Shown here piece by piece: positions 6,470 to 24,267 of a stretch of DNA of 42,658 nt (its first letter is position 1; each line of letters opens with the position of its first letter). This stretch comes from Deltaproteobacteria bacterium TL4 (GTDB taxonomy: Bacteria; SAR324; NAC60-12), in NCBI GenBank assembly GCA_051382335.1, contig JBBCAX010000004.1, positions 1 through 42,658 of the forward strand. Reading direction: 5' to 3'. The notes below the pieces were generated by a model. The model was not told the origin of the DNA and ran no database searches. It was given only the letters and a program-made list of their open reading frames with translations. The position numbers and the translations under genes were made by a program.

Positions 6470-7246
6470 ATGACGCTAGTCACGCTCACTACTGATTTTG
6501 GAACACAAGACGGATATGTCGGGGCAATGAAAGGACGGATTCTTTCCCTTGCTCCAAGCGCCACCATTCTTGACCTGACTCACGAGATTGCTCCCCAAGA
6601 CCTGATTCAAGCGGCTTTTTGTATTAAGCGCAGTCTGACTTACTTTTCCCGGGATACCATTCATGTGATGGTGGTTGATCCCGGTGTCGGATCGCTTAGG
6701 GAAGGGCTTGTTGTACAAACCAAGTGTGGACTGTTAGTCGCTCCTGATAATGGAATTTTAAGTTTATTTTTGGCAGAGACAAGGCCTCAACAAATCCGAA
6801 GAATTCGTAAAGAAACCCTACTTTGGAAAGCTCATAGCAGTTTTGACGGGTTGGCTGTTTTTGCGCCTGTTGCCGCGCACTTAGCTCAGGGAATGTCCCT
6901 GGATCAAATAGGAGACATTGTTGAAGCGATTCAACCCTTGGCGCTTCCGGAACCTGATATTCAAACGAGTCATATCGAAGGGGAGATCCTTCTTTTTGAC
7001 CGTTTTGGAAATGCGATTACCAATATCCCGTCCGCTCAACTCCAAGCTAAAGAATTTTCCGTTCATTGTCAGCGTCATAGCCTTCCTTTTCAGTGTCATT
7101 ATAGTACTGAAAGCGAACAGCCTCATCCTGCAATAGCGATCATGAATAGTGATCATCTGTTAGAATTAGCCGTTTATTGCGGTTCAATAGAGGAGGAATT
7201 TCAACTTAAAAGGGGGATGAAGGTCAGGGTCGAATTTAAGACTTAA
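6470..7246 (+). CDS. SAM hydroxide adenosyltransferase / SAM-dependent halogenase family (DUF62)
   Basis: TLTTDFG, VVDPGVGS, APDNG, DRFGNAITN motifs; start moved to ATG 6470. Confidence 0.9.
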   Translation: MTLVTLTTDFGTQDGYVGAMKGRILSLAPSATILDLTHEIAPQDLIQAAFCIKRSLTYFSRDTIHVMVVDPGVGSLREGLVVQTKCGLLVAPDNGILSLFLAETRPQQIRRIRKETLLWKAHSSFDGLAVFAPVAAHLAQGMSLDQIGDIVEAIQPLALPEPDIQTSHIEGEILLFDRFGNAITNIPSAQLQAKEFSVHCQRHSLPFQCHYSTESEQPHPAIAIMNSDHLLELAVYCGSIEEEFQLKRGMKVRVEFKT

Positions 7247-7309
7247 TAAAGTGAGGTCAAAAAGGCGGGACTAGCCCGCCTATTTCTTAACGTTTCATGT
7301 TAACCATTT
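7220..7309 (+). repeat. Junction direct repeat copy 1 (attL-like)
   Basis: AAGGTCAGGGTCGAATTTAAG...TTAACGTTTCATGTTAACCATTT; DUF62 3' end, terminator and last codons of flgE; one mismatch to 14945-15034. Confidence 0.95.
7259..7288. terminator. Intrinsic, probably bidirectional terminator
   Basis: AAAA-AGGCGGG-actag-CCCGCCT-ATTTCTT. Confidence 0.8.
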
Positions 7310-7496: not shown

Positions 7497-7505
7497 TGGG
7501 CGGGT

Positions 7506-8021
7506 TCACTCATACCCACATCCGCAACATAGTGTCTGATCACCACGTGGACACTTTTCCGCAAAACTTCCGAAATCAATCAGATCCACATGGCGTTTCA
7601 AAATCTCCGGAATATTTTGCATCGTGTAATTAGGATAAATGCCCACAATTTTTGAATCCTGATCGGCCACCACGATGATGGAAGTTGCATTGCTTCCATC
7701 CAGGCCTACCTCATCCGATACTTCTTCACGATCATCGCCTGAAAGCCATCCTCCCAGACACTCTACAACTTCTCCATGAGTACCACAGTCATCAAAAACA
7801 CACATTGTCGGCAACCCTTTCTCTACCACATAAATGTAAAACTTTGATCGAGGTACATTTTTATAGGGATATGATGTTGAATCTCCTGGTCTCTCAAGAG
7901 CAGGTTCCCCCAGTTTAAGAGGACCAAACTCCTTGATCTTGCCTCTATCACAGGCTATTAACAGAAGTATTGGAATAACCATAAAGAGAAAAATAAAAAT
8001 GATACGTGGCCTCATGGTCAT
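7506..8021 (-). CDS. Hypothetical lipoprotein, integron cassette gene
   Basis: Hydrophobic N-terminus with lipobox LIAC; stop is followed by a partial R'' GCCCA. Confidence 0.65.
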   Translation of the reverse strand: MTMRPRIIFIFLFMVIPILLLIACDRGKIKEFGPLKLGEPALERPGDSTSYPYKNVPRSKFYIYVVEKGLPTMCVFDDCGTHGEVVECLGGWLSGDDREEVSDEVGLDGSNATSIIVVADQDSKIVGIYPNYTMQNIPEILKRHVDLIDFGSFAEKCPRGDQTLCCGCGYE

Positions 8022-8434
8022 TCCACGACCTGAAGTGTACCAATACTGATTCCATCGCCTTTTCTGGCCTTAATCAAAACACGGTATAATTCATCCCATC
8101 GCTCTCGTTCCAGGATGGTAATACATCCCAGTGAAGCTCTTCCGGTGTGAATGAAAGTCTTCAGATCAACTGGGATCGTGGTTTGCAGACTCCCAACATC
8201 CTTGAAAACCGGATCTCTTTCAATGATGCGAATCTGGACGGGCAAAGAGAACGAAGGTTGGCTGGTGAGAAACTGTCCAATTTCCTGGTTGAGATTAACA
8301 CTTTTCCCTTGGGACAGTTTCTTGTTGATTCCCAGAAAACGGTTGGGAACCTCCATTTCAATCCGTAAGTTCCTGCCAATGGAATCCCCGGAGTATTTCA
8401 AACCGACCCACTTCAGTATGACGATTTTGTTCAT
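8018..8434 (-). CDS. Hypothetical cassette protein with an HxGxxSxGC (L,D-transpeptidase/Tlde1-like) C-terminal motif
   Basis: HTGRASLGCIT; starts just after attC R'; 4-bp overlap with the lipoprotein gene. Confidence 0.5.
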   Translation of the reverse strand: MNKIVILKWVGLKYSGDSIGRNLRIEMEVPNRFLGINKKLSQGKSVNLNQEIGQFLTSQPSFSLPVQIRIIERDPVFKDVGSLQTTIPVDLKTFIHTGRASLGCITILERERWDELYRVLIKARKGDGISIGTLQVVE

Positions 8435-8455
8435 TGTAATCTCTTCGAATAGTAC

Positions 8456-8542
8456 GCCCAACGCTTTGCATCACCGGCGGCAAAAAACAGAACGACAAAT
8501 GATCGGCGCTTTTTGCTGTAAGAATGCATGCGCTTATTAGGC
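8456..8542 (-). mobile_element. Integron attC site (degenerate R'')
   Basis: Minus strand GCCTAAT...TGCAT...GCAAAAA...TTTTTGC...ATGCA...GTTGGGC; 87-bp imperfect palindrome between co-oriented ORFs. Confidence 0.75.
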
Positions 8543-8565
8543 TTTTTCATTTTTTATCAAATTGC

Positions 8566-8880
8566 TTATAGTGCGTTTGCATCTAGTGCCTCTCGTTCTT
8601 TGTCGCATTTCTCCGAGTTTTCAAACTCATACTGAATGTAAACATCACCTTTTTCGTGACCAAGGCCAGTAGCTATCAAGATAATGGCTTTTAAATTATC
8701 TGTTAGCGTGGACTGTTCTTCGGCATCCCAATAAGCACAAAGGTATCTTTCCTCTTTGGTTAAACCAGCCATAAAATCTTCTGGCTCATCCCAGATACTG
8801 CCAGGCAAAAGAAAATCTTGTGTTTTGTGCTTTCCATATTTTTTAGCTAAAGCGTCCTTTCATGAATGAAACTTTTCCAC
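8566..8880 (-). pseudogene. 5'-truncated cassette gene
   Basis: Frame extends upstream as KDALAKKYGKHKTQDFLLPGSIW, then meets a stop and the repeat element at 8881. Confidence 0.5.
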
Positions 8881-8900
8881 CTGTGCAGGTACCTTTTTTT

Positions 8901-9051
8901 GGCTACTGGCCTAAGACGGGACAGCCATCATTTCAGTAGGTTGGGTAGAGCGGTAGCGAAACCCAACATCCAGGCAGTAATGTCCGTTTTTCGTTGGGTT
9001 TCGCTACGCTCTACCCAACCTACGTTTTTGTCCCACTTTAGACCGGTAGCC
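8901..9051. mobile_element. MITE carrying a REP doublet
   Basis: 23-bp imperfect TIR (GGCTACTGGCCTAAGACGGGACA / GGCTACCGGTCTAAAGTGGGACA), 8-bp TSD CTTTTTTT (8893-8900, 9052-9059), inner inverted pair GTTGGGTAGAGCG...CGCTCTACCCAACCTAC. Confidence 0.85.
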
Positions 9052-9057
9052 CTTTTT

Positions 9058-9172
9058 TTAACCACGAAAAACACTAAAAACACGAAATAAAACCTGCAAA
9101 ATAGGGTTTCACGGAGGAATTCATTTATTAAAAAATCATTTATTTCGTGTTTTTCGTGTTTTTCGTGGTTAA
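9058..9172. repeat. AACCACGAAA-type inverted repeat element
   Basis: TTAACCACGAAAAACACTAAAAACACGAAA ... TTTCGTGTTTTTCGTGTTTTTCGTGGTTAA. Confidence 0.8.
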
Positions 9173-10434
9173 TTTTCAAACCACCTGCACAGCTCGAAAT
9201 TTTGAATGGTGGTAAAAACGATTCCGCCACCGGCAACGGAGAGAAGTTTTTTAAGATGGTCTCTGTTTTCCGCCTGTACGGGGTCTTGGCGGAGCAGTTG
9301 TTTGCAGTTGGCAGAGGTATCAAATAGCTGATCGTCCAAGTCATTGCGGTCGGTTATCACAACAATGGTGGGATTATTGAGGGTGATAACCACTTTCCCT
9401 GAGTAAAAAACCATAGAAAGCGATTTTCCCGATCCTTGCGTATGCCAGATTACTCCCGCTTTACGATCTCCTCTTGGCTGACTTTCCACGCTGGGTTGAC
9501 CATAAACCGCAGGATTTTCTTGAACGCATATTGCGGAAATATCCGTAGCGCGAAGCGTGGATTCCACTGCTTTGTTGACGGCAAAGTATTGATGGTACGC
9601 CGCAATTTTTTTTATCGTTGTGACTGTGGTTAATCCGATTTGGTTTGGGCAATCACAAGGAGTTGCCCCTACAGATTTGGATTTTTCAAACACGATGAAC
9701 TGCCGGATGAGATCAAGAAGCACCTCTTTTTTGAGCATCCCTTTGGTGAGGGTCTCAAGCTGAGGAATGGTGGTGCCGTCTTCTTTCACGCCATCGACCG
9801 ATTTCCAGGCAAGAAAGCGTGACCAATCCGATGAGACGGTTCCCGTTTTGGCATCGAGTCCGTCAGAAGCGACGAGAATGCCGTTATAGTAAAACAGGGA
9901 AGGAATGGCTTTTTTATAGTTTTGAAGCTGGGTATAGGCTTTGTGAACGGTGGCGTTTTCATCGGCAGGATTTTTGAGTTCAATCACCACCAGCGGGATA
10001 CCGTTAATGAGAAGCACCACATCCGGACGTTTATTCACATTGTTTTCAATGACCGTGAACTGATTGCAGACGAGAAATTCGTTGTTATCTGGATTTTCAA
10101 AATCAATGAGTTTTACTTCATCGTATTTCACCTCTCCGTTTTTCATGTACTCAATACGAATACCTTCGGTGAGCATCAAGTGAACCGCCTCATTGTTGTC
10201 CATGAGGTTTTGGCTGGGAAGGTTGAGAAATTGACGGATTGCCTGTTCCTGGGCATCGGAGGGGATGGAAGGGTTGAGGGTTTGGACAGCTTCCCGTAAG
10301 CGGTTTTTGAGAATCACTTCGGAGAGGCTTGGTCGTTCAGTTTCCTGATCTTCGGGGGAAAAGTAAGAATACCCCTGTGATTCGAGGAGTTCAACGAGGT
10401 ATTGTTCGATGTCGGATTCGTAAAGAGCGGTCAT
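9169..10434 (-). pseudogene. hsdR: Type I restriction subunit R, C-terminally truncated
   Basis: RPDVVLLINGIPLVVIELK, WHTQGSGKS, TDRNDLDDQL; ends right after FTTIQ, before the DEAH box. Confidence 0.9.
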
Positions 10435-10985
10435 GGGGATTCCTTGACAAATAGAGAGTCCTCTGTCCAGACACGGGGATTGTTCAGGATATATTCCTGT
10501 ATTTGATTTAGGGAGGCTTCATTGCGAATGATATGTTCATAATAATTGCGTTGCCATAATTGATTTCCCGGGGTTTGACGCCATGCATTGATGTGTTTGG
10601 TGGATACCGTTTTGAATGCACCGATCAAACGCCCGAGGGGTTTGCGTTTTTTCGGATGATTTGTAGGGGCGGTTCGCGAACCGCCCCTACCGTCATCGCC
10701 ATTATCACCATCATCTGTCAAAACAATGATTCCGTGAAGATGATTGGGCATCACCACCCAATTGTCCAAATCCACATGGTCATATTGCGATGCCAACCAT
10801 TCCCACGTATCCACGACAATCTGACCTGCCCCATTCAACCGCATTGCCTCATCCACAATTTTTCCAAACAGGCATTCCCTGTTCTGAACACAGATCGTCA
10901 CAAAATACGCTCCGTTTTGCGTATAATCATACCCCTTCAACCGAATCGACCGGCGATGATGTTTTGCGGGATCGTATTTCATCAT
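10431..10985 (-). CDS. REP-associated tyrosine transposase-like (Y1 HUH) protein
   Basis: RRSIRLKGYDY, YFVTIC, VMPNHLHGI, WQRNYYEHIIR, YILNNP. Confidence 0.9.
   Translation of the reverse strand: MMKYDPAKHHRRSIRLKGYDYTQNGAYFVTICVQNRECLFGKIVDEAMRLNGAGQIVVDTWEWLASQYDHVDLDNWVVMPNHLHGIIVLTDDGDNGDDGRGGSRTAPTNHPKKRKPLGRLIGAFKTVSTKHINAWRQTPGNQLWQRNYYEHIIRNEASLNQIQEYILNNPRVWTEDSLFVKESP
10663..10690. repeat. Perfect 28-bp REP-like palindrome inside the transposase gene
   Basis: GTAGGGGCGGTTCGCGAACCGCCCCTAC; half copy at 11028-11042. Confidence 0.9.
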
Positions 10986-12307
10986 AGCTTCCGTTGATGA
11001 ATGTCTGTTATGTCCATGAACGTGTCCGTAGGGGCGGTTCGCTGCACCCTCACCTCCCCCTTCATCAATTTTGGAAGCAAGGTGTCACGGAGGTTTGAGA
11101 GCGTTTGGATTTGCTGAAGATTTGAAAAATTTTTCTCAAAAAGTGGTTGAACAATTTTTTCAAAACCATTTATTAGATTTTGGTTGGGGATTGAGACTAA
11201 TCGCGACTCGAATGTCGATACAGTAATAGCATCAAAAACGGCACCGCTGGCTGAACGCTGAATTTTTTCAATCAGGTTCTTTGTCAAAAGAAAAATAAAT
11301 AAATTTAAAACACCTGTTCCATTAGTGCATAACATGATTGATTCATTGCCATATCACAAGCTGCTAAAGTACATTTTCCAACAGTTCCCCGTGCAGTGAT
11401 AAATACTGTGTTTTTCGGGTACAGATGACTATTACATTTTGATAGTCCCGTTTCAGTAATGCTCTTTTCTGTCTCTAAAACATAAAATGAATCTTTAGCA
11501 TCTTTTGGTGTAAAAAATGGAATATTTCCATTCCAATATTCTTCAATATTCGTTTTTGGGGTTCCTCCACTCAGAATTTCTGCGATGTCTGTAAACTTCC
11601 CAACTCTCCACCCCTCAGGAATCTCCCCAAGTTCACTCTCAATCATTTTTCCGCCGGAGTCCTTATACGGCTCCTCATTCTCGTCAGGAAAATTGAAATC
11701 CACAAACCACCGCTTAAAAAGCGTCTGCGCCAAGGCTTCCAGTGATTTGTTTTGTTCTCGGAGCAGTTCTATTTTGTCATCAAGGGCGGAAAGAACAGAG
11801 GCAATGGCTTTTTGTTCGGGGAGAGGGGGGAGAATTATTGGAAGTTGTTTTAATGATACGATTGTAAATGCTTGCTGTGTTGAACCTATTTTTGCATGAG
11901 TTAGAGTTTCTTTCCCTTGAGGTGAAACTATCCAATAAAAAAGCCACTTTGGGTATATACCTTTATAGTTTCGAAACCATGTTAAATTTCCATCTTTGAA
12001 ATAGAATTTAAAGTTTTTCTCTACTAAATATGGGTTTCCAAGCGTTCCAACCGAAGTTAATAAAATATCGTTTTCTTCTGGTACTCCAAATTTATTCTTG
12101 ATCTCATTATATTTGTTCTCTGAAATAAACAATTCTGTTGAAATAGCACTTCCATTAAATCTTTCTGTTACCTCTTTTCCTCTCAAAATAAGGAATACCT
12201 GAAGATTGGTATTCTCTTGCAAAAATTCGCTTTGAAGAAGTTATTTCACAAACTTCCCCTAAACTTATTTTAAGCCAACCCTCCAACATATTATTTTCTT
12301 CATCCAT
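10982..12307 (-). pseudogene. hsdS: Type I specificity subunit with two frameshifts
   Basis: Three consecutive frames (breaks near 12185 and 11320); PPLPEQKAIA, LGEIPEGW, LRDTLLPKLMKGE. Confidence 0.9.
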
Positions 12308-12308
12308 A

Positions 12309-13349
12309 CTATTTTCCTGTATTATTAAACTCCAATCCCTTGACCACACGGTCAAAATCCGATTCATAGAGTCGATCCTGAATGGGACGATACTTTTCAA
12401 ACTCGCTTTCAGCAAACGTTTTGGCAATTTCTGCGGTGACATGCCCTGCATTTTCTAAAATTTCTTTGGTGTTGAATTGTAAAAACGCATTCAGTTTTGA
12501 AGCCCAGTCGTTCATGGTCATAGGGATACCTTGTTCCGCTTGGTCTTCCGCATAATCGAGGTACATGGTCACAAACCGATTGAGGGACTTTATTTCCTTT
12601 TCACCCAGATAATTTTTTGCGATTGAGACATCAGATTTAATAATTTTTCCAGAAGGTGCTTTTTTCCACGTAGTGAGTCCCATATAATCTTTCGTATGGT
12701 CGGCTCGTTTCATAATAAGTTCTGCGGCGGTGTTTCCATGGATGGCGTAGTGAAGTTTATTTTGTACCATCGCAAAAAAATCTTTGGTGGTTTTTGATTG
12801 GGCGTCATAATCCATCGCCGTCGCATAAATATCTGTAATTTTCTGGTAAAAATTCCGTTCGCTTGCACGAATATCACGAATTTCAAGAATGAGATCATCA
12901 AAATATTGTTTACTTAAATAAGCCCCGTTTTTAAGTCGTTCCGCATCAAGAACATATCCACGAACAGCATAGTTTTTAAGAATTTGGGTTGCCCATCTTC
13001 GAAACTCCGTTGCTCTTTCAGAATTAACGCGATAACCAAGAGAAATAATGGCTTCAAGATTGTAATGATCAATTTCTCGTGAAACATCCCTTTGTCCCTC
13101 TTTTTGAACTATTAGGAATTTCCTAATAGTTGCTTTTTCTGTAAGCTCATTTGACGAAAAAATATTTTTCAAATGTTCATTGATGGTTGGAATTTGAACT
13201 TCAAAGAGCTTTGCTATGAGTTTTTGTGTCAACCATACGTTGTTATCATGGATTCGCACTTCTATGGTATTTTCTCCTGCTTGAGAAGTGAATATGAGAA
13301 ACTCTGTTGTAGAATTTCTTATCGAAAGCTGTTTATCGTCTTTTTTCAT
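12309..13349 (-). CDS. RhuM-family protein
   Basis: VWLTQKLIAKLF, YNLEAIISLGYRVNS, IRDIRASER, IAKNYL. Confidence 0.9.
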   Translation of the reverse strand: MKKDDKQLSIRNSTTEFLIFTSQAGENTIEVRIHDNNVWLTQKLIAKLFEVQIPTINEHLKNIFSSNELTEKATIRKFLIVQKEGQRDVSREIDHYNLEAIISLGYRVNSERATEFRRWATQILKNYAVRGYVLDAERLKNGAYLSKQYFDDLILEIRDIRASERNFYQKITDIYATAMDYDAQSKTTKDFFAMVQNKLHYAIHGNTAAELIMKRADHTKDYMGLTTWKKAPSGKIIKSDVSIAKNYLGEKEIKSLNRFVTMYLDYAEDQAEQGIPMTMNDWASKLNAFLQFNTKEILENAGHVTAEIAKTFAESEFEKYRPIQDRLYESDFDRVVKGLEFNNTGK

Positions 13350-13363
13350 ACAAAATTCCTAAG

Positions 13364-14356
13364 TTATTTCCTTAACAAAAGTAAAACAAGTCCCACCATC
13401 CGGTCTTTGTCTTTCGGGTTGCTTTCGGCGACAAGCAGGGTCAATGCGGTCAGTGCTTCGGGGCTGAGACGGGAAGGATTGAGCAATCCCGCTTGTTTCA
13501 AAAACCACACAAAGGCGAAGGCTCCTGATCGTTTGTTGCCGTCCGTAAACGGATGATTTTTGACCAAGAAATAGAGCAGGTGCGCCGCTTTTTCTTCCAG
13601 CGTCGGATACAGGTCTTCACCTCCAAAGGATTGCAACACATTGCCCACAATCCCTCCCACGCTATCCGGGGAACGTTCGGCTCCAAATAAATCCGTTGCT
13701 TCGCCTTTATCTTTCAATTCCTGTTTCAATTCAGCCAGAGCTTGCGTCAATTCCTGGGCGGTGAACTCCACTTGTTTTTGGGTGGCACCGGTGGTGGGCA
13801 AAGCGGACTTGTCATACGCATCCAGCGAGAACCAGGTGTTGGCAAAAAGGTTGATGAGTTCCAGCACGCTTTGGGTATCCACAGTTCCACCGGTGGGGAG
13901 CAGTTTTTTCACCTCCTCGACCGCCCGCAGAAAGGTATCGTAATTTTGGGCAAGCCGTTCCGGGTTGAGGGTGTAGCCTTCCCAAATATGTTGACGGAGG
14001 GTTTGAGTCGCCCATTGGCGAAATTTTGTGCCTTTTTTTGAGTTGATCCGATATCCGACAGAAATAATGACATCCAGATTGTACATTTTTTGTTTTCTGC
14101 GAACCGTCCGGTTCCCCTCTCTCTGAACTTGTAAGGATTCCTTACAAGTTGCCTGTTCGGAAAGTTCCTCGTCACGATAAATGTTTTTCAGATGCAGGGT
14201 GATATTCTGCGGAGTGGTATCAAAAACATCAGCCATTTGAGCCTGTGTTGCCCAAAGGGTTTCTGCTTTCGTATCAGCCTGAAACTCTATTGCCCCATTT
14301 TTTGCCTGGTAGATGACAATCTCTGTATGTTTTTCCTGTTTCATAATCTCATACAT
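13364..14356 (-). CDS. RhuM N-terminal domain + Fic/Doc domain protein
   Basis: YNLDVIISVGYRINS and Fic motif HPFTDGNKRSG. Confidence 0.9.
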   Translation of the reverse strand: MYEIMKQEKHTEIVIYQAKNGAIEFQADTKAETLWATQAQMADVFDTTPQNITLHLKNIYRDEELSEQATCKESLQVQREGNRTVRRKQKMYNLDVIISVGYRINSKKGTKFRQWATQTLRQHIWEGYTLNPERLAQNYDTFLRAVEEVKKLLPTGGTVDTQSVLELINLFANTWFSLDAYDKSALPTTGATQKQVEFTAQELTQALAELKQELKDKGEATDLFGAERSPDSVGGIVGNVLQSFGGEDLYPTLEEKAAHLLYFLVKNHPFTDGNKRSGAFAFVWFLKQAGLLNPSRLSPEALTALTLLVAESNPKDKDRMVGLVLLLLRK

Positions 14357-14466
14357 TACAAAGTAATTCCGATATTCCCCAACTGCTTCTCAATCTCCGC
14401 ATTGAGGCTCATTTCTTGAGTCATCTGCTCTCTCAATTTACCCGTCAATTCCGCAATTTTATCCTC
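14356..14466 (-). pseudogene. hsdM: HsdM C-terminal remnant
   Basis: Manual translation EDKIAELTGKLREQMTQEMSLNAEIEKQLGNIGITL*; the stop overlaps the next ATG (TAATG). Confidence 0.7.
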
Positions 14467-14825
14467 ATGATTTGGCACCTTTCAAAAACGATAAATTCTT
14501 GAGTTTAAAAAAAGATCTTTGACAATTTAAACCTATGGCGCACTTTTTGTTTCAGGCCGCTTCTGGCAAAGAAATATCATACACTTCGTCCAGCGCTACT
14601 AATTCCTTGGTTGCTTTTTGAGGATGTTTGATATGAGCCTTCGTCAATTTGATCCATTTTTGTACAAAATTCTCATCATTTTGGATTTTATCAATGAAGG
14701 CCTTCATATTATCTGCTTCGGCTTGTCGGACAATGGAAGGAATCGATAGAGATTCCTTTTGTGACCCCTCAGTAGTGCCTTTGTAATTTTCATAATGGAG
14801 GAGGAAGTCAATCCAGGAAATGAGG
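14465..14825 (-). pseudogene. Probable IS 3' remnant (transposase tail and right end)
   Basis: Startless frame LISWIDFLLHY...DISLPEAA* (stop 14552-14554), then a spacer ending GGTGCCAAATCATGAG at the hsdM breakpoint. Confidence 0.4.
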
Positions 14826-14930
14826 TATAGTGCTCAAGATAAGTTTTGTCCTGGGAGCGAGGGCGTCCCGCCCTCCGGTGAGGGCAAGATGCCCTCGCTC
14901 CCAGGGAAAAAACTTTCCTGGACAGCTATA
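14826..14930. mobile_element. MITE family A copy 1
   Basis: TATAG ends, core CTGGGAGCGAGGGC...GCCCTCGCTCCCAG; homologous to 29709 and 33996. Confidence 0.85.
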
Positions 14931-15213
14931 TGCAATTACACCCAAAGGTCAGGGTCGAATTTAAGAATTAATAAAGTGAGGTCAAAAAGGCGGGACTAGC
15001 CCGCCTATTTCTTAACGTTTCATGTTAACCATTTCTTGAACCATTTCATCAGAAGCGGTTACCGTTTTAGCATTCGCCTGGAAGGCTCGTTGAGTTTCAA
15101 TCATCTTCACAAACTCTCTCGCCAAATCCACGTTAGACTGTTCCAAAGTCTGTCCACGAATGGTTCCCAGACTGCCTTTTCCTGGCTCACCCAAGACTTC
15201 TCTGCCGGCATTA
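14928..15213 (+). repeat. Junction direct repeat copy 2 (286 bp)
   Basis: Matches 23982-24267 with 10 mismatches by manual count; includes terminator hairpin 14988-15006. Confidence 0.95.
15012..15213 (-). pseudogene. flgE: Duplicated flgE 3' fragment
   Basis: 66 residues identical to the FlgE C-terminus; five nucleotide differences, all synonymous. Confidence 0.9.
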
Positions 15214-15320
15214 TAGACGTTCATAAAATTAGTGACACAGTGACACAGTAGAAGAGGCGTCTCGCCTCTTTCAAGGAGCGGGACGCTCCTTCTACTGTGA
15301 ATTTATTAAAATAAACGTCT
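15214..15320. mobile_element. MITE family B with GTAG REP doublet
   Basis: Ends TAGACGTTCAT / ATAAACGTCT; core CACAGTAGAAG...CTTCTACTGTG at 15244-15299. Confidence 0.75.
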
Positions 15321-15451
15321 TAACCCATAATTGCGTCACTCCTGCTGTACTGGGCGCGGGAGCGCCAATTTAGGCATTCCCTCGCAGGAGCGTGAGAACG
15401 AGAAGTTTTCATAGTTATTCTTTTGCCGTTCCTTACCAACTCCTAATGATC

Positions 15452-18400
15452 TTAAAGATGTGCCCCTTTTCCCCGATTGCACTCCCGACAAACTGCACGC
15501 AGGTTGCGAGGCTCTGTTTTGCCCCATTTTGATATAGGAATGATGTGATCGATTTCCAAAACGACTTTGTCCGTCACAGAGCTTTTTCCACACACCACAC
15601 AGCGAGACTGATCACGTTTCAAAATGTGATAGCGCAGTTTCTGCGTTAGTTTCTGACGTTCGTTGTTAACCCATTCGGAAGGGGGTTTAATTTGACGAAT
15701 ATAAGCAGGATGCTCTTCATTGATCGCTTCAGTTTCATTTTGAGTCAGGGTTCCATCCACCAGACAGTCCATAAAATCTTCCGATTGAATAGAATCACAT
15801 CCATTCAACATATCCTGTGCCAGTTTACGTTTGTTATCCAGAAGACGAGTCAGTATGGATTCAAATGTTACTATGTCTTTGGAAACTACGGTTGGAGTAT
15901 AAACATAAACCTGTTTAGTTTGACCAATGCGATAGGCTCGATCTGTCGCCTGATCTTCTTTGGCAGGATTCCATGGACGCGTGAAATGAATCACATGATT
16001 GGCAGCTTGAATATTGACACCAAAACCCATTGCTGAAGTTCCAAGAATCAGCACTCCAAAGTTAGCCTTGTCCTGGAACCGGTCAATCAGAATTTGTCTG
16101 GAACGTCCTTTGGATGAAGTGGGAGTTTCTCCATTGATAATGACAGGAGAAAACCCGAATTTTTCCTGAATTGCTTTCTGAATCACACGTTGCAACTCCT
16201 TGTAGTCCGTAAATATAATGACTTTTTCTGCTTTGGATTCAATCCGTTTTAGTTGTTGGAGCATCCAGTTTAGTTTGGGGGAATGTTTCAATATCTCATC
16301 AAGTTTCAGATTTGCCCCCTCTTCAATCGGGTGAGCGCAAATCATTCTCAACCGATGGATAAAGCCCAACAATTGATTCCCCGCATTTTTATCATTTTTC
16401 TTGAGATCCTCTATTTTCTGATGATATTCCTGCCTCACTTGCTGGTACATTTGTTGTTGTTTTACGGAGAGGGACAGCTCAAGACCTGCTGGGTCTGGAT
16501 TGTCTATTTTGGGTGGTAAATCTTTGGCGACCTCCGTTTTCATGCGCCTCATAATTTGGGGTTCAATCAACGCTCGCAATTCTTCGAGTTTGTTTTTTTG
16601 TTCCTCTGTTTGGGATTCAATAGGACGAGTATAGCGGGAGCCGAATTCATTCAACTCTCCCAGAAAACAGGGCTGAATGAAATCGAACAGACACCATAAA
16701 TCAGTGAGCGAGTTTTCCACAGGAGTTCCCGTACAGGCAATCTTGAAGCGTGCGTTTTGTTTTTTTACGCCTTGAGTGACGAGCGCCCCAGGGGTTTTAA
16801 CTTTTTGAGCTTCATCGCAAACCATGATACTCCAAGTGACCGCCGCTAAGGAAAATTCATGATCTCTGAGCGTTTCATAAGTAGTCAACACAATATCAGC
16901 GTTTTGCTGCCAATTGGGTTTCAAAAATTTGGTCAACCCCTTTTCTAACAGGGTTTCCTCAATCTGGCTTTTTGGCAATTTCAATGCGGACAGAGAATCG
17001 CCATATAGCTTTAGAACACGGGCAAAAGCTGGGACGAAAAAACGTTTCATTTCATTTTCCCAGTTATCCAGCAATGCAACGGGAGCGACTATCAGGACAG
17101 GATCACGCTGAGGTTCTTTTTCAAAAAAATGGGCAATGAACGTCAACATTTGCAGGGTTTTTCCGAGTCCCATGTCATCAGCGAGAAGGCATCCACGTAC
17201 TTGGTCGGGGGATTTACTCCACAAGTGTTGCAACCAGGCCACTCCCACTTTTTGATGATCCTTCAACTGAACTCCAGGTTGTAATGAGGAAGGCAACTGC
17301 GGAGGTGTGTCTTTATCAAATTTTAGCATTTGAACACGTTTTTCCTCATATTCCCGTTCCTCAATATTCTGTTTGATCTGCAAAACTAACCGTTCCTTGG
17401 GCAGTATCTTTACAGATTCCTTCTCGGATATTGTTTTCGCCTCTTCGCTTTGCTTTACTAAAAGAACATCCCTGATTTGAGATCGAAGTTTAATGGCCTC
17501 CGGCACGGAAAGCGGTTGTGGTAAGTTGGGAAAGACAATTTGAGTCTCTCCCTTTTGCTGTGCATCCGTAATGCGCTGTTCCAGAGCTTCAATATCCTTG
17601 TCAGAACATTGCAGATAAATTGTCTCTTTTCCCTCAGCTTGCCAGGGAATGACCACCGGAACCTCAGTCGGAATCCAGTCTTTTTCACCCGATGTTTTTG
17701 AAATAAATGGAGAATAAATTGTTTGACGTTTGCCGATGCCTTCCACACGTTCTGAATAATTGGAAAGGTCAAATACGGTCTCTTGACGAATTTCTGTGTG
17801 AAGAGTCTCCTGAAACGCATTTTCTGGTGAGTTGATTGGCTGCGTTTCAACTGGAACAGTGTTCCAACACTCAAGCGTTGCCTTCAGTTGCGATAGTTGT
17901 AATTCTGAATTGTTGTCCAGTTCGAGTTCATAACCTTCCCAGAAACAGCACAGCATGTTTTTGGCTAACTTGGATTCCAGTTCATCGACAAACTGCCTTA
18001 GGCGTTTCGGAGAATCGAGGAAAAACTTTTCAGAAGGCGTGGTCTCGGAAGAAATGGATTCTATTCGAATATCCACTCCAAGCATGGCTTCATTTTCATG
18101 ACAAACTTGGTGTTGAAAGCGATAAAATTCAAGCTGGGCGGCCTGACGATCCGCCTCAAAGACTTCAGGCGGAATGACTTGTATGGCGTCTTCACCCAGC
18201 AAGGCATAAGGATTGCGGACGAAAGCTTGCGCCCGGAGTCCCGAAACTCTGCGAGCGGGCATCCGCTTGATTTCAGAAAGCACTGTTTTGACGGCTGGAG
18301 CGATCACTACATGAATGATCCCGCTTGAGGGAGTTGTAATGGAGTAACGATCTTGAACACCATTGTATTGATCGAAGGTTTGCAGCCAGTTTGCTGGCGC

Positions 18401-19126
18401 TTCTTCAAATGTAGGCTGGACTTCCACTACCTGCGTGTTTGCGACAAAGACAGGGTTCATTTTCAGGTGGAGGCTTTCAGGCGTGAGAATAATCGTTTTT
18501 TCCAAGAAATCATCAAGCCTTGCTCCTGCTGAGAGTGCCAATTTTCGGATGTGTCCCCATTCTTGTTGATGACGTGCCTGTGTTTTCTCAGCAGGAAGCA
18601 ACTCTGCCAATTTTTTAACAGCTTTCACCAACCGCCAGGCCGATCCTGACAACAGGAATGTGTCAGAGGGGTTGGAGGAATTCTCGAAAATGGCTCCTGT
18701 GAGCCTTACTCCTCGAATCTCTTGACCAGACGCATTGCGCCAGCCTACGAGATTGATTTGAAAATCAGCATCGCTCAAGCCGCTCCAACTCGACAGGCAT
18801 GGTACATAACCACAGATTTTCGACAATTTCAGCAATCCGACACTGCTTTGGTGCGTTTCATCGTCCAGGATGCGATACACATGCTCCCACGTAATCAAGA
18901 GCCGAGACCCCTGGAATTCTGCCAGTTCTTCCTCTTCCAATTGCGCCAGATAGCGCACAGTTTCCTGATCTTCCTTCTGAAACAGCGCTGGTTCTGTAAA
19001 CCACCATTCCGTTGATGTTGGCGATTGCTCCTCTGGAAAAAATTCGAGTCCTGCCTGAGTAAAAGAACGCTGTAAAGATGAAAATTTAGAAGATTTTATG
19101 AAGGAGAACATAGTCATTGTTTCCAA
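15452..19126 (-). CDS. zorD: Zorya ZorD: SNF2 helicase with C-terminal HNH nuclease
   Basis: LADDMGLGKT, DEAQ, TGTPVEN, QATDRAYRIGQ; tail CVVC...DHIIP...N...CRECN; last gene after zorABC; start may be 19117. Confidence 0.85.
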   Translation of the reverse strand: METMTMFSFIKSSKFSSLQRSFTQAGLEFFPEEQSPTSTEWWFTEPALFQKEDQETVRYLAQLEEEELAEFQGSRLLITWEHVYRILDDETHQSSVGLLKLSKICGYVPCLSSWSGLSDADFQINLVGWRNASGQEIRGVRLTGAIFENSSNPSDTFLLSGSAWRLVKAVKKLAELLPAEKTQARHQQEWGHIRKLALSAGARLDDFLEKTIILTPESLHLKMNPVFVANTQVVEVQPTFEEAPANWLQTFDQYNGVQDRYSITTPSSGIIHVVIAPAVKTVLSEIKRMPARRVSGLRAQAFVRNPYALLGEDAIQVIPPEVFEADRQAAQLEFYRFQHQVCHENEAMLGVDIRIESISSETTPSEKFFLDSPKRLRQFVDELESKLAKNMLCCFWEGYELELDNNSELQLSQLKATLECWNTVPVETQPINSPENAFQETLHTEIRQETVFDLSNYSERVEGIGKRQTIYSPFISKTSGEKDWIPTEVPVVIPWQAEGKETIYLQCSDKDIEALEQRITDAQQKGETQIVFPNLPQPLSVPEAIKLRSQIRDVLLVKQSEEAKTISEKESVKILPKERLVLQIKQNIEEREYEEKRVQMLKFDKDTPPQLPSSLQPGVQLKDHQKVGVAWLQHLWSKSPDQVRGCLLADDMGLGKTLQMLTFIAHFFEKEPQRDPVLIVAPVALLDNWENEMKRFFVPAFARVLKLYGDSLSALKLPKSQIEETLLEKGLTKFLKPNWQQNADIVLTTYETLRDHEFSLAAVTWSIMVCDEAQKVKTPGALVTQGVKKQNARFKIACTGTPVENSLTDLWCLFDFIQPCFLGELNEFGSRYTRPIESQTEEQKNKLEELRALIEPQIMRRMKTEVAKDLPPKIDNPDPAGLELSLSVKQQQMYQQVRQEYHQKIEDLKKNDKNAGNQLLGFIHRLRMICAHPIEEGANLKLDEILKHSPKLNWMLQQLKRIESKAEKVIIFTDYKELQRVIQKAIQEKFGFSPVIINGETPTSSKGRSRQILIDRFQDKANFGVLILGTSAMGFGVNIQAANHVIHFTRPWNPAKEDQATDRAYRIGQTKQVYVYTPTVVSKDIVTFESILTRLLDNKRKLAQDMLNGCDSIQSEDFMDCLVDGTLTQNETEAINEEHPAYIRQIKPPSEWVNNERQKLTQKLRYHILKRDQSRCVVCGKSSVTDKVVLEIDHIIPISKWGKTEPRNLRAVCRECNRGKGAHL

Positions 19127-20742
19127 TATCCTTTGGTAACATAAAGCTTAAACCCCCATTGCTCTAACTGTTTGCCAAACCGGGATATTACAGATTTCCT
19201 ATCAGATTCATCCTCGTGAGGGGTTCCGTTTAATTTGTGATAGTATCTCACCCAAAGAGCACCTCCTTTAGGTCTTAAGTCTTCAACTTCATAAGGAAAT
19301 ACATACTGTTTTATTTCCTCAATAGAAGGGGGTTTATTGGGTGGGTTGGTAGGAAAATGAGATTGATACTGATCTGGATCAATTCCTAATTTTGCCAATT
19401 CTGATTTAAAACCATATTCCCATTGGTGGCCACTATGATTTCCCCAAAAGACACTTTCATTTTTATGCTTTAGTGTATAAATGGTGAATCGTTCCGATGG
19501 AACATGAGAATGCAGATGTCCATCGATTGGATAGCCGTAACAGGCATTGCCAGTTTCACTGAATTCAACAAAATAATATTCACCTATCCTCATGATAAAG
19601 GCATTGGTTGACGATGGGGCATCCTTCAAGTAACTCAACCGATTGTTTTTTTTTCGTTTGTTACGAAATTCAACATAGTCTGGATCACTGGAATACCTGG
19701 CGTCATTTCCCAAAACGATTTGGGTATAGGTAATTTGCTTAAGATACTGTTTCCAGAACTCATAACGTCTGGAATCTCCTACTCTATCCGATTGCAGAAT
19801 GTTAAAAAACTCTTCTAGGTCTTCCAGTGCCAGCCATTGACTGACCATGTTCTTCACATTATGTTCAACCAATCCCCATTTTGCCTGGCGGATAAGCTGA
19901 GGGCTTCCCCAACATTCAATGGCAAAATCCCTCAATCCTTCATGTCTCATGAGATCAGAACATTGGTGATAACGGATAAGAATCAATTTCAAACCTTTAT
20001 CATGATAGAGGGGATGCGTTTTCAACTGTTCCAGCATTTGATTCAGATAGTTTTTGAACCCACTATCGGGCAATTCAGTAACTTGTTTGATTTGCGAAAG
20101 AATGATTTCTCCCCAGAACCAGCTTCCTTCGTGAATTAACTCCCGTAATGAGTCCAACTGAGTCGTATTTCCATCTAACAATGCTTTTGCGTAAGATGGG
20201 CAAGGATTGTCAAAAAACAATTGAGGATGTTGAGAAAGTAATTCCATCCAAGGCAATGTTTTTTTGGGGAGGTTTTTAATAATCTTGAAAGTAAGTGCTA
20301 GAAATTTCTGCAAGGTCTGCCAGTTAGTATAAGCAGAAGCATTTTCAGCATCTGGTTTGCGTTGAAAATAGTTATGTAAGAGGCCACGCCACCAACCTGT
20401 GCTGATGAGTTGGTTTTGTTTCAACAGTTCGTTAATATCCTTAAAAAACTGAAGTAAACAGGAATCATCCAGGAACTGGGAGTTATCCTTAAGCTTTGTG
20501 GTTAAATTCCAGCATAAAACCCGTAATTGTCGTGTAGATTTCAAACCTTGAGATTGGTAAGTACGGATGGCTATCGCCAGTTGATCTTGTGAAATCTTGG
20601 GGACGGAGACTTGATTGAATTTTCGTTTCAAGTCTTCCCCTGTTTTTTGTAGTTTAAGAGGCGGAGCTATATTTATTTTATTTCTAAAGCTGGAGTTCTG
20701 TTGATCGAGTTCATTTTTCAGCATTTCAATGGGTGAAGTCAT
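19114..20742 (-). CDS. zorC: Zorya ZorC (EH-signature domain)
   Basis: RYEFWKQY and FVEFSETGNACYGY motifs; position between zorB and zorD; start 20742 or 20775. Confidence 0.85.
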   Translation of the reverse strand: MTSPIEMLKNELDQQNSSFRNKINIAPPLKLQKTGEDLKRKFNQVSVPKISQDQLAIAIRTYQSQGLKSTRQLRVLCWNLTTKLKDNSQFLDDSCLLQFFKDINELLKQNQLISTGWWRGLLHNYFQRKPDAENASAYTNWQTLQKFLALTFKIIKNLPKKTLPWMELLSQHPQLFFDNPCPSYAKALLDGNTTQLDSLRELIHEGSWFWGEIILSQIKQVTELPDSGFKNYLNQMLEQLKTHPLYHDKGLKLILIRYHQCSDLMRHEGLRDFAIECWGSPQLIRQAKWGLVEHNVKNMVSQWLALEDLEEFFNILQSDRVGDSRRYEFWKQYLKQITYTQIVLGNDARYSSDPDYVEFRNKRKKNNRLSYLKDAPSSTNAFIMRIGEYYFVEFSETGNACYGYPIDGHLHSHVPSERFTIYTLKHKNESVFWGNHSGHQWEYGFKSELAKLGIDPDQYQSHFPTNPPNKPPSIEEIKQYVFPYEVEDLRPKGGALWVRYYHKLNGTPHEDESDRKSVISRFGKQLEQWGFKLYVTKGYWKQ

Positions 20743-21493
20743 GAGCTTGTTGAAGTTGGCAGTTTCCGAGTTCATTGTTCAAAGAAGGAATATCCTGGCG
20801 AGTTTCGTCCAATCCATAGAACTCCAATCTTAATTCAACACGTCTGCTTTCTGCGGGTTTTGCCTTGGCCGAATTGAAAGAGAATCCTCCCACCAGAAAT
20901 AATTTTTGAATTTCTTCTTTTTGGAAATCATTCAATGGAATTTCCTGAGGCATTGGCGGACGAAAAAGGGAGCAAAGCACTTGCTGGGCACGTTGCAGAC
21001 TGAGATTCAAATTGAGCAAGTAAGCCCCACGCCTATCAGTAAATCCCTCCACTACAATTCGTTTCAACCATTTTTGACCTGTATCGGTATTGGCGATTTT
21101 CAGGATTTCCGGTACAAAACTACGTAACGCTATTTCAGCGTTTTGAGACAGATTGTATTTTCCAAAATCAAACAAAGCCTGGGTTCCAAAATCAATACGG
21201 TTATTCACGCAATCGACTGTAATAGTTCCAAAATTAGGAGAGGTTTTGGCCACCTGATTGATCTCCTCACACAAGTTATTGATTTCCTGTATCCGCCCTT
21301 CAAATCTGGCTATGCGCTCTTTTTCAACCTGATTTTTTTCATCAATTTTCTGGTTAACCACAATCAATGACACACTCATCACAACTAGAAAAAGCATCAT
21401 GAGAGCCGTCATTAAATCCGCATACGAAATCCAGAATGGTTTTTCCCCTTCGTCTTTGCTTTTTTTCCTATTTACATTCCGGCTGCCAAACAT
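20726..21493 (-). CDS. zorB: Zorya ZorB (MotB-like TM + OmpA-like domain)
   Basis: EKPFWISYADLMTALMMLFL with the conserved Asp; VEGFTD, LSLQRA, SRRVELRL. Confidence 0.9.
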   Translation of the reverse strand: MFGSRNVNRKKSKDEGEKPFWISYADLMTALMMLFLVVMSVSLIVVNQKIDEKNQVEKERIARFEGRIQEINNLCEEINQVAKTSPNFGTITVDCVNNRIDFGTQALFDFGKYNLSQNAEIALRSFVPEILKIANTDTGQKWLKRIVVEGFTDRRGAYLLNLNLSLQRAQQVLCSLFRPPMPQEIPLNDFQKEEIQKLFLVGGFSFNSAKAKPAESRRVELRLEFYGLDETRQDIPSLNNELGNCQLQQAHDFTH

Positions 21494-21497
21494 GATA

Positions 21498-21640
21498 TAG
21501 ACTTTCATTTAAATAAATTCATATTTTTTTATATCTTTCGCATGCTGAGCGGAGTCGAAGCACTGTCATTCCAGGGATTGTCACAACCCCTTCAACTTCA
21601 CTCAGGGTGCGGCTTTTGAAACTATTTAAATGAACGTCTA
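21498..21640. mobile_element. MITE family B between zorA and zorB
   Basis: 18-bp TIR TAGAC(T/G)TTCATTTAAATA with 1 mismatch, TA at both ends; core GCTGAGCGGAGTCGAAG / CTTCAACTTCACTCAG. Confidence 0.85.
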
Positions 21641-21646
21641 GAGTTC

Positions 21647-23758
21647 CTAATGTTTGAGTTTGTTGCCAATACCTGAAATATCATCAGCAACACCACTCAG
21701 TTCATCAATAGCCGTACTCAACATTTGGACAGCGTTGCTGAGGGAACTATCAAATTCTGCTTTTGATTTGCTCAAACTTTTCTCAACGGAGTCACCAAAG
21801 CTGTTAAAACTTGTAGTTAATACTTTTGAAATCTGGTTGAGATAGTCGTTGGTTTGTTGCTGAACTTCAGAAAGTTTGCTGGAAACCTTTTGCATATCGC
21901 TGACGATTTGATGATTCATCCCAGCCTCATTTTTAGCATTTTCAATCAACTCTTTCAGAACAGCCACCATTTGAGTGATCGTGCTTCGAGCCTGGGTGTA
22001 GTCCTGCAAGATATTTTGGAGGGTTCTAGCGGATTGCTCCATTGTCATTCCAGTCGCGTTTAGTTTTCCGTAAACTTCATTAGCGGTAGTCATTACCCCC
22101 TGAACACTTTCACCGGCCTGCTGGAACTCACTGGCTGCAATAAAGAGATTTTCCGCTCCCTGATTCATTCTCGAAACAGCATCTACAGTAACTTGAGTAA
22201 TGGATTGAGTATTTTCCTTGATGGCCACGATTATTTCTGAATTTTGCTGGATCAAACCTTTCAGTCCATCTTGCAGACTACTCACCACTTGCTGGTTGGT
22301 TTCATGGGTTTGAGCCTGGTGCTCTTTTTCGTCATCCAACACAGATTTTCTCTGTTGGGTAAAATCACTCATGATTCCGCCCATTTGTTCAGATAAATGG
22401 GTAATGGACATACTCAATTGTTCTGTCATGGCAGACTGTGATTGATTTGCTGTACTGCGTATTTGGGTAACCCATTCCTGCATTTGGCTTCCCATTTGCT
22501 TCTGCTGGTTTTCAATGTTTTCCATCATTTCTCTGAATCGGGTTCCGATTGCGGATGTATTCCCATCACTGACTTTACCCATTGCTTCAACCAGTTGCAT
22601 CATTTGTTGATTCATCTGATTTTGACGAACTTCCGACTGGCTCATGACCTGAAGTAATTGGTTGCCCATGGTATTAGTGTTGTCGGAACCTGCACTTTTC
22701 AAGTCTGTAATGAGGTGTTGAAATCCCTGCTGCATATTCTGCATCGCATGAACGGACTCGGTCATCATGGTATTCAGTCCCTTCATTGATCCGCCAAAAG
22801 TATCTTCAAGTTTGGCAGTAAATGCTGCTAAAATATTTTCCAACACCCCATGAACTGCGTGGCTCTGGTCTTGTCTGACGCCATCCACCGCACTTGCAAT
22901 TTGTCCCAAAGGTAACATGCTGGTATGAATTGATTCCTGAATTTGATTGGCAATTTTATGAGAACTTTCTTGATAATAGATCTGACTGGCCTGAATCTGA
23001 CGTTCCGTCAAATTGGTGAGCAATTGTTTCAGCTCACCAACCAGACTATCCTTGAGTTGGGTGGTTTGGGTGGCGTTTTGTTCAGAGGAATAGACTAACT
23101 GGGATAAATACTCTTCACCTACTCCAGAGTCGTACAAGGCATCAATGGCTTGCACCAGATCGCCTACAGCTCTGTAACAACCAGCCAATAATATTTTTTC
23201 AAAAAGAGTGATCAGCATCGCCACAAAAATGGCAATTCCTGATGCAACAAAAGCTACTCGTACACCATTGAGTAATGCCTGAAGACTTGCTCTTACTGCC
23301 TCTGGTTCGCCTCCCGGTTGAAAACCATTAAGTCCCTCAATCAATCCCCAAAAAGTACCGATGATCCCGATCCCCGTCAAAATTCCAGGTAAGTGTCTAA
23401 AGAATTCGGTGTGAAGTGGAATATCAACTAATACTTGAGTATTGAAAAAATTCTCGGCACTAACGGTTGAGCGAATGCGTCCATCTTTTTGAGTGTGCAG
23501 GGTTTCCTTATACTCTGACCAAAGATGTTTTAAGGTGCGATTTTTTCCTATATCCTCATTCAATACTCCATGATCAAGCTCTGCCCGCTTTTTCTTATCT
23601 CTAATCAATTGGATAACAGGCCGAAAACGAAAAAACCAAAACCAGAAAGCAGGGAAGACATAAAAGGCAACAAAGCATACGAAAGCAAACCCCACGAGGC
23701 TCATTACCGTAGCTGGTACAAGGTTTTGCCAAGCATCTAACAATAACGACTTAATCAT
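21647..23758 (-). CDS. zorA: Zorya ZorA (MotA-like TMs + long helical tail)
   Basis: HLPGILTGIGIIGTFWGLIEGL, three hydrophobic segments, long Q/M/S-rich helical tail. Confidence 0.9.
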   Translation of the reverse strand: MIKSLLLDAWQNLVPATVMSLVGFAFVCFVAFYVFPAFWFWFFRFRPVIQLIRDKKKRAELDHGVLNEDIGKNRTLKHLWSEYKETLHTQKDGRIRSTVSAENFFNTQVLVDIPLHTEFFRHLPGILTGIGIIGTFWGLIEGLNGFQPGGEPEAVRASLQALLNGVRVAFVASGIAIFVAMLITLFEKILLAGCYRAVGDLVQAIDALYDSGVGEEYLSQLVYSSEQNATQTTQLKDSLVGELKQLLTNLTERQIQASQIYYQESSHKIANQIQESIHTSMLPLGQIASAVDGVRQDQSHAVHGVLENILAAFTAKLEDTFGGSMKGLNTMMTESVHAMQNMQQGFQHLITDLKSAGSDNTNTMGNQLLQVMSQSEVRQNQMNQQMMQLVEAMGKVSDGNTSAIGTRFREMMENIENQQKQMGSQMQEWVTQIRSTANQSQSAMTEQLSMSITHLSEQMGGIMSDFTQQRKSVLDDEKEHQAQTHETNQQVVSSLQDGLKGLIQQNSEIIVAIKENTQSITQVTVDAVSRMNQGAENLFIAASEFQQAGESVQGVMTTANEVYGKLNATGMTMEQSARTLQNILQDYTQARSTITQMVAVLKELIENAKNEAGMNHQIVSDMQKVSSKLSEVQQQTNDYLNQISKVLTTSFNSFGDSVEKSLSKSKAEFDSSLSNAVQMLSTAIDELSGVADDISGIGNKLKH

Positions 23759-23981
23759 TAAGTTTCTTCATGGATGAGTGAATCATGCTACGTCCCCCCT
23801 ATTCAGGACCACCCCAATCCCACCTATCCAGAACCACCTGATTTTTGAATATGATTCTGGCAAAGGATAGTGATAAAAATGAATAATTTATGACAGATTT
23901 GTCGATTTTTGATATGAAAAATTACCTCTAAACCTTATACTTAGAAGGGTTAACAAAAATCCTGTGAAACCTTTCACCTAA

Positions 23982-24267
23982 ATATGCAATTACACCCAAA
24001 GGTCAGGGTCGAATTTAAAAATTAAGAGCGTGAGGTCAAAAAGGCGGGACGAGCCCGCCTATTTCTTAACGTTTCATGTTAACCATTTCTTGAACCATTT
24101 CATCAGAAGCGGTTACCGTTTTAGCATTCGCCTGGAAGGCCCGTTGCGTTTCAATCATCTTCACAAACTCTCTCGCCAAATCGACGTTAGACTGTTCCAA
24201 AGTCTGTCCACGAATGGTTCCCAGACTGCCTTTTCCTGGTTCACCCAAAACTTCTCTGCCGGCATTA
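23982..24267 (+). repeat. Junction direct repeat copy 3 (attR-like)
   Basis: ATATGCAATTACACCCAAAGGTCAGGGTCG... continuing into intact flgE. Confidence 0.95.
24038..24067 (-). terminator. flgE terminator
   Basis: AGGCGGG/CCCGCCT stem followed by a T run on the minus strand, just after the flgE stop. Confidence 0.8.

Follow-up and report, generated by a model that had tools for sequence, protein, structure and literature searches.

The window analyzed here, a stretch of 42,658 nucleotides from Deltaproteobacteria bacterium TL4 (contig JBBCAX010000004.1 of assembly GCA_051382335.1; SAR324 lineage), carries a type I Zorya defense operon in which the last protein, ZorD, ends in an HNH domain, at the C-terminal position occupied by an Mrr-like nuclease in the majority of its homologs. 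This HNH-tailed ZorD makes the operon a real but rare form of type I Zorya that appears to be under selection. We consider it probable that the HNH domain was captured into the usual Mrr slot, has been conserved there and serves as the predicted DNA-cutting effector of the system.

An HNH domain at the C-terminus of ZorD

The zorD frame (15452-19126, minus strand) encodes 1224 amino acids and is uninterrupted as far as its stop codon; its probable start is the ATG at position 19117, overlapping the zorC stop codon. Pfam placed SNF2-rel_dom at residues 624-933, Helicase_C at residues 956-1068 and HNH (PF01844) at residues 1176-1222 (E = 1.5e-10; 41.5 bits for a cutoff of 21.4). Mrr_cat (PF04471) was not detected in the protein by Pfam, the HNH domain being found in its place. 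The D-H/N/N metal-binding and catalytic residues (D1193-H1194, N1208 and N1217) and the two CxxC zinc pairs (C1176/C1179 and C1213/C1216) were all present, and these eight positions were invariant or nearly so across relatives in an alignment of 124 rows. The model of the tail obtained with AlphaFold2 from this alignment had a mean predicted local distance difference test score (pLDDT) of 84, as against 40 for modeling without an alignment. Its best fold match was the Gme HNH nicking endonuclease (4H9D; Z = 9.1, root mean square deviation of 2.3, 80 aligned residues), and the other matches included a phage HNH protein, EcoKMcrA (6GHC; Z = 7.0), ScoMcrA and TagI. On the basis of its residues and modeled fold, the domain is a member of the HNH (beta-beta-alpha-metal) nucleases, with a predicted cutting activity. 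The order of domains given in an initial annotation made from the letters of the window, an SNF2 helicase followed by a linker and a zinc-binding HNH, was thus confirmed by the unbroken frame, Pfam, the key residues, the model and a second protein described below (hereafter referred to as P0002), and the profile and structure checks that it had proposed for the tail both returned an HNH domain. The composition of the tail was not foreign-looking (GC content of 0.453 versus 0.446, with 0.434 for the genome).

Ahead of the tail, residues 48-1076 (of 1080) of the Escherichia coli ZorD structure 8QY7 aligned with residues 58-1121 of the window protein (E = 7e-261). Identity to the ZorD of E. coli E24377A was 44%, and residues E651, D730, E731 and Q733 of that protein correspond to E692, D771, E772 and Q774, all of which are kept. 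The window protein therefore has the features of a type I ZorD: the N-terminal domain and an SNF2 ATPase with the DEAQ box and the equivalent of E651.

The presence of EcoKMcrA, ScoMcrA and TagI among the fold matches, together with a weak match to a PADLOC type IV model (E = 0.0011), would be consistent with modification-dependent cutting of the McrA (type IV) kind, in which case this Zorya system would target modified phage DNA. However, the matches spanned only the catalytic finger common to all HNH enzymes, and unrelated HNH proteins scored alike. Enzymes of the McrA/TagI type read modifications with a separate domain. No modification-reader family was detected by Pfam in the window ZorD, the interval between the ATPase and the HNH domain consisting only of a variable linker of 31 residues. 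Modification-dependent cutting is accordingly very unlikely, and the altered DNA-modification specificity envisaged in the initial annotation was not borne out.

A second fusion and conservation of the HNH domain

The same ZorD-HNH fusion was found in P0002 (MBF0236971.1), a protein from a separate assembly labeled SAR324 cluster bacterium, which is 70% identical to the window ZorD. This second, independent protein excludes chance or an assembly artifact as the source of the fusion. All eight key HNH residues are identical in the two proteins. Their identity reaches 79% in the HNH core and 78-82% in the ATPase lobes, whereas the N-terminal domains are 54-68% identical and the linkers 32%. The HNH domain thus appears to be as constrained as the motor, since the identity of its core falls in the range of that of the ATPase lobes while the linker between them drifts. 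This comparison, which is one of two sequences and of protein identity rather than of nonsynonymous to synonymous substitution ratios, suggests that the tail is under selection as a working domain. An intein or homing element was judged unlikely, given the terminal position of the HNH domain and its motor-like conservation.

The window ZorD and P0002 formed a single, strongly supported pair. Their sister group was an open fork in both of the trees inferred, and the trees therefore do not separate a direct replacement of Mrr by HNH from the loss of Mrr followed by the gain of HNH.

C-terminal domains across the ZorD family

Tails were classified from the sequence following helicase motif VI in 394 ZorD-type sequences: 120 from one homolog list, 117 of the 120 in a profile search list (two repeats and one HNH-only protein were left out) and 157 of 160 loci (three lacked the motif). 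These sequences are the best-scoring parts of longer hit lists rather than a random sample, and some of those with bare ends may be cut at contig ends. The set comprised 221 Mrr tails, 6 partial Mrr tails, 160 bare ends, 4 short unassigned tails, 1 cut sequence and 2 HNH tails. Removal of duplicates left 338 distinct ends (190 full Mrr, 6 partial Mrr, 135 bare, 4 short unassigned, 1 cut and 2 HNH), with an Mrr nuclease domain, full or partial, at the same position in 196 of them. Among the 157 loci taken alone, for which the stop codon was seen, 69 had a bare end. The ZorD slot is therefore found in three states, Mrr, empty and HNH, and the survey upheld both the placement of the HNH domain in the position of the Mrr-like nuclease of other ZorD proteins and its rarity. 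Mrr is probably the ancestral tail, because it is the majority state and is present in distant clades. In searches of 401 genomes of another phylum and of 339 genomes of one class, 12 ZorD proteins were found (one of which had already been counted); 11 were of the Mrr type, one was bare and none had an HNH domain. The trees imply a minimum of 13-14 changes in the state of the tail, most of them between Mrr and a bare end. At one locus (L199:7187-11150, genome G216), a frameshift just after helicase motif VI splits ZorD, and an Mrr tail lies in the other frame.

A word search on residues 1095-1224 identified fusions only in the window and P0002 among 70 candidates. With a profile joining the helicase end to the HNH domain, these two proteins were the only ones of 7999 candidates to score on both halves (288 and 270 bits; the next candidate scored 175). 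A phmmer search of 1.84 billion representatives gave no further long fusion in the best 150 matches (cutoff of 75.7 bits); tail-less ZorD ends alone have a median score of 36 bits in such a search, and fusions may be hidden in the 50% clusters or carry a distant HNH domain. No further fusion was found by single-protein pattern scans, and scans with one alignment (A3) gave no HNH domain in the best 80 of at least 600 and the best 80 of at least 597 stretches; an Atlas search returned only helicase clusters, under 0.9. The ZorD clade of the window was absent, at E = 1e-100, from 87 other genomes of its phylum. An HNH-tailed ZorD is not described in the accessible text of the Zorya literature searched (PMC11890865, PMC11946911, PMC12904381, PMC8565338, 10.1101/2022.06.16.496414 and 10.1101/2024.10.26.620412); most subscription papers lie outside that search and may mention one.

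The type I ZorD of E. coli had been taken, in the initial annotation, to carry a C-terminal Mrr-like nuclease, and this proved incorrect. The E. coli protein (8QY7, E24377A and ETEC4068) has 1080 residues and ends where the linker of the window protein begins, and Mrr_cat was not detected by Pfam in the E24377A sequence. Matches to zorD were obtained by blastn in 97 of 5426 E. coli genomes, four of which were opened: two had a full zorD encoding 1080 residues, with its end shortly beyond the helicase, and two had zorD-like pseudogene fragments (L008:8554-9288 and L009:8975-9490) adjoining insertion sequences. In PMC11946911, the nuclease activity of E. coli ZorD is assigned to the ATPase-containing C-terminal domain, and the word “Mrr” is not used in its main text or searchable supplements; PMC11890865 credits an Mrr-like domain in ZorD to prior work, and the PADLOC labels likewise call ZorD Mrr-like. 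The Mrr-tailed ZorD is thus a published generalization that holds for most homologs from outside E. coli but not for the E. coli protein. The survey corrects this widely used label: outside E. coli most ZorD tails are of the Mrr type, whereas the E. coli model lacks one.

Origin of the HNH domain

The initial annotation had proposed an effector-domain swap giving a hybrid variant, with HNH named as the effector of type II (ZorE). Both are HNH-fold nucleases, and the window domain has a weak match to the ZorE model (E = 0.0066), as would be expected had a ZorE nuclease been grafted onto ZorD. However, this match reached only 15.3 bits, for a cutoff of 600, and identity to the ZorE of EDL933 was 29% over 48 residues (a comparison involving one sequence and one model), versus up to 67% for a large generic family of C-terminal, four-Cys HNH domains. 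In addition, ZorE lay on a very long branch of the HNH tree, and no ZorE above the cutoff was found in the genome of the window. The scores and identities all but rule out ZorE as the source, and the hybrid fails because the HNH domain is not ZorE-derived; practically no probability can be left to it. From these comparisons, the domain is considered to derive from the widespread generic family.

Proteins of the generic family (P0121-P0269) range from 92 to 556 residues, and a helicase domain was found by Pfam in none of the 40 scanned. The nearest HNH domain from outside ZorD was that of P0122, on a tree based on few columns and with little resolution. P0122 (252 residues) and P0127 both share the helix preceding the HNH domain; no family in Pfam covers the N-terminal portion of P0122. 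The family of these two proteins is a candidate donor; no close donor HNH was found in the 87 other genomes of the phylum.

The zorABC genes and the state of the operon

The four adjacent open reading frames (ORFs) on the minus strand have the complete type I order zorA-zorB-zorC-zorD, and all are open (Table 1). PADLOC assigned them as ZorA1, ZorB1, ZorC1 and ZorD1; the gene order and these matches (rounded E values of 3e-110, 5e-98 and 3e-215 for zorC, zorB and zorA, respectively) substantiate the initial assignment to type I. Identity to the E24377A proteins was 32, 46, 27 and 44% for ZorA, ZorB, ZorC and ZorD, respectively. ZorA matched PF01618 above its cutoff and the broader ZorA model NF033916 with 472 bits (cutoff of 250). 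The probable start of zorB is Met6, at position 21493, and the ion-binding aspartate is kept, D26 of E. coli ZorB aligning with D31. ZorC keeps six of the six residues of the E. coli EH network (D332, R335, W339, E400, H443 and W458); these and the ZorD residues compared above are named in PMC11946911. A promoter scan did no better than chance, with 13 matches for 16 expected.

Table 1. Positions, strands and supporting evidence for the features of the window.
Feature	Position	Strand	Evidence
zorA, 703 amino acids, MotA-like membrane part and long helical tail	21647..23758	-	PADLOC ZorA1, E = 2.9e-215
zorB, 260 amino acids as listed, MotB plug and OmpA domain	20726..21508	-	Pfam; PADLOC ZorB1, E = 4.7e-98
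zorC, 553 amino acids, EH-signature DNA-binding protein	19114..20775	-	PF15611, E = 2.1e-48; PADLOC, E = 3e-110
ZorD core, residues 1-1122 (N-terminal domain and SNF2 ATPase)	15761..19126	-	Nearly full-length match to E. coli ZorD
ZorD linker, residues 1123-1153 (31 amino acids)	15668..15760	-	32% identity to P0002; pLDDT about 50
ZorD four-Cys zinc HNH domain, residues 1154-1224, and stop codon	15452..15667	-	Pfam HNH; structure model and fold matches
MITE-like element, 143 nucleotides, terminal inverted repeats, TA ends, between the zorA stop and the probable zorB start	21498..21640	.	Inverted repeat
Second, degenerate MITE-like element, end abutting the downstream direct repeat	15214..15321	.	
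Upstream direct-repeat copy (286 nucleotides), left boundary of the Zorya island: last 202 nucleotides of intact flgE, a hairpin resembling a terminator, and a spacer	23982..24267	-	
Downstream direct-repeat copy, right boundary of the Zorya island (orphan 3' end of flgE)	14928..15213	-	
Third flgE-end copy, 90 nucleotides, closing the second island	7220..7309	-	

Inserted between zorA and zorB is an element resembling a miniature inverted-repeat transposable element (MITE). The genome has 65 paired copies of this family, most of them 176-193 nucleotides long, and the inserted element folds strongly (z = -6.1). The distance from the zorA stop codon to the probable zorB start is now 153 nucleotides and would be 12 with the element removed, versus 13 in E. 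coli. The copy of the operon in the window may have been silenced or weakened by this element, the HNH domain mattering only in relatives; the displaced zorB start and the strong fold are in keeping with this, as is the decay of the neighboring type I restriction island. Nevertheless, the four frames are intact and the key residues are kept, although the two ends of the element have already diverged from each other, which suggests that the insertion is not recent. In addition, an in-frame ATG is present within the end of the element. We regard silencing of this copy as unlikely.

Contribution of the HNH domain to defense

In E. coli, disturbance of the envelope is sensed by ZorAB, which recruits ZorC and ZorD, the full-length ZorD being autoinhibited by its N-terminal domain (PMC11946911). 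Were the window system to work in the same way, ZorAB would recruit ZorC and ZorD, and the SNF2 ATPase, released near the membrane, would load onto incoming phage DNA and move along it, bringing with it the tethered HNH domain. The HNH domain would then nick this DNA without strict dependence on sequence or modification, and repeated nicks would destroy the phage genome. Location and autoinhibition, rather than methylation, would protect self DNA.

Several observations weigh against this reading. About 40% of the ZorD homologs are tail-less, indicating that the tail can be dispensable, and a search of the 1.5 kb downstream of 73 tail-less loci revealed no HNH or Mrr gene standing alone. The E. 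coli ZorD, which has no tail, is active in defense and in DNA degradation in vitro (PMC11946911). The argument from conservation of the HNH domain is subject to its two-sequence basis, given above, and the 143-nucleotide element may lower ZorB synthesis and impair this copy of the system. Finally, the NCBIfam equivalogs of type I Zorya, including those for ZorB1, ZorC and ZorD, were the best-scoring models yet remained below their naming cutoffs (score/cutoff: NF041794, 501/750; NF041788, 276/400; NF041789, 270/490; NF041790, 1170/1500).

Alternatively, the HNH domain may be active but accessory, the ZorD core doing the essential work and the tail only speeding up degradation or widening the range of phages. 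In E. coli, DNA degradation is a property of the C-terminal domain of a ZorD without a tail and is lost in the DEAQ and E651 mutants (PMC11946911); the residues concerned are kept in the window protein. The frequent changes of tail state on the trees point in the same direction. Conversely, the HNH domain is conserved like the ATPase while the linker drifts, and the accessible text on E. coli ZorD names no nuclease active site of its own, the mutants described there affecting only the ATP site. An accessory role is rather unlikely, and the HNH domain as predicted effector remains the reading we prefer.

E. coli ZorD degrades DNA with no recognizable nuclease domain. By contrast, the discrete HNH domain of the window protein would allow the ATPase (D771/E772) and the nuclease (H1194) to be separated by single mutations, and exchanges between Mrr, HNH and bare tails would probe the modularity of the slot. 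More generally, and tentatively, the C-terminus of ZorD might be an exchangeable nuclease socket, with a constant SNF2 motor, Mrr as the customary and probably ancestral module and HNH as one captured more than once, the window ZorD then being an ATP-coupled HNH nickase, similar to ZRANB3, switched on by a membrane motor. If so, the tail-less E. coli ZorD would be a derived exception, and the window protein would be the first ZorD to offer a compact, clearly defined active site for mutagenesis. The exchange of nuclease domains on defense ATPases is a familiar theme and two HNH sequences were found, making the variant a moderate surprise.

A genomic island at the 3' end of flgE

The Zorya operon is likely to have come from a related strain as an island at the 3' end of flgE. 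Two tandem islands occupy this site (7220-24267), with three flgE-end copies as their boundaries (Table 1). The two 286-nucleotide copies differ at 10 positions, and all five differences in the coding part are synonymous, as would be expected if both flgE ends were functional in different strains. The 90-nucleotide copy differs from the copy at 14928 at one of 90 bases and from that at 23982 at six. The Zorya island probably arrived last, because the copy now completing flgE (23982) is the most diverged of the three. The flgE-end stretch has a match in 26 of 44 relatives from the same family, each once, as against three copies in the genome of the window. In one such relative (G043, locus L249), flgE directly faces a SAM_HAT gene, giving an empty site with no island; a SAM_HAT gene also follows the third flgE-end copy in the window. 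No integrase was found by Pfam in either island. Elsewhere in the same relative (L247:4245-8901, contig G043:C26), zorA, zorB and zorC genes, with products 32, 50 and 29% identical to those of the window, are followed by a tRNA nucleotidyltransferase-like gene; zorD was neither beside these genes nor found in that genome at E = 1e-100.

The second island contains a decayed type I restriction locus (9169-14478), with hsdR truncated at 421 amino acids and hsdS in three pieces; a 40-amino-acid ORF (14356-14478) presumably resembles a remnant of the hsdM C-terminus. The locus also includes two genes of the RhuM family, of which one is fused to Fic, as well as a Y1 transposase-like gene of the type associated with repetitive extragenic palindromic (REP) sequences. 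A 3' remnant of a group II intron (7426-7496, plus strand) lies beside the third flgE-end copy (RF00029, 31.4 bits for a gathering threshold of 40; E = 2.2e-4), and three ORFs of 449, 171 and 147 amino acids, at 5110-6459 and 7506-8461, matched no Pfam family above the cutoff.

Comparison with known systems

The operon shares with the type I Zorya of E. coli its four-gene order, the residues tested by mutation and a ZorD core spanning nearly the whole E. coli protein; it differs in that the window ZorD runs about 100 residues further, into the HNH domain. Mrr-tailed ZorD proteins (for example P0003, WP_011797920.1 of Polaromonas and WP_213539904.1 of Nitrosospira) have the same core, with about 43-47% identity for the listed homologs, followed by a nuclease after the same conserved helicase end, but this nuclease is an Mrr_cat domain of about 130 residues rather than a zinc HNH domain of about 70. 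Type II ZorE (NF041791; a nickase, PMC11890865) is, like the window tail, an HNH-fold nuclease downstream of a ZorAB motor. It is, however, a stand-alone protein of 367 residues with an internal HNH domain, and type II systems have neither ZorC nor ZorD; the window operon, with both of these and no ZorE as its effector, does not belong to type II. The generic four-Cys HNH proteins are closest over the nuclease domain itself, P0122 even sharing the preceding helix, but have no helicase.

The combination of an SNF2 ATPase and a C-terminal nuclease in one chain is also known from human ZRANB3 and from HmaA of Halomonas. In ZRANB3, which has an HNH nuclease, cutting requires ATP hydrolysis (PMC5481773), and in HmaA, an ATPase-nuclease fusion, the nuclease is essential (PMC11232893). 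Both belong to separate lineages without ZorABC, ZRANB3 acting at replication forks and HmaA carrying a PD-(D/E)xK nuclease. They are architectural parallels rather than relatives of the window ZorD and indicate, by analogy, that cutting can be coupled to the motor when an SNF2 ATPase and a nuclease are fused.

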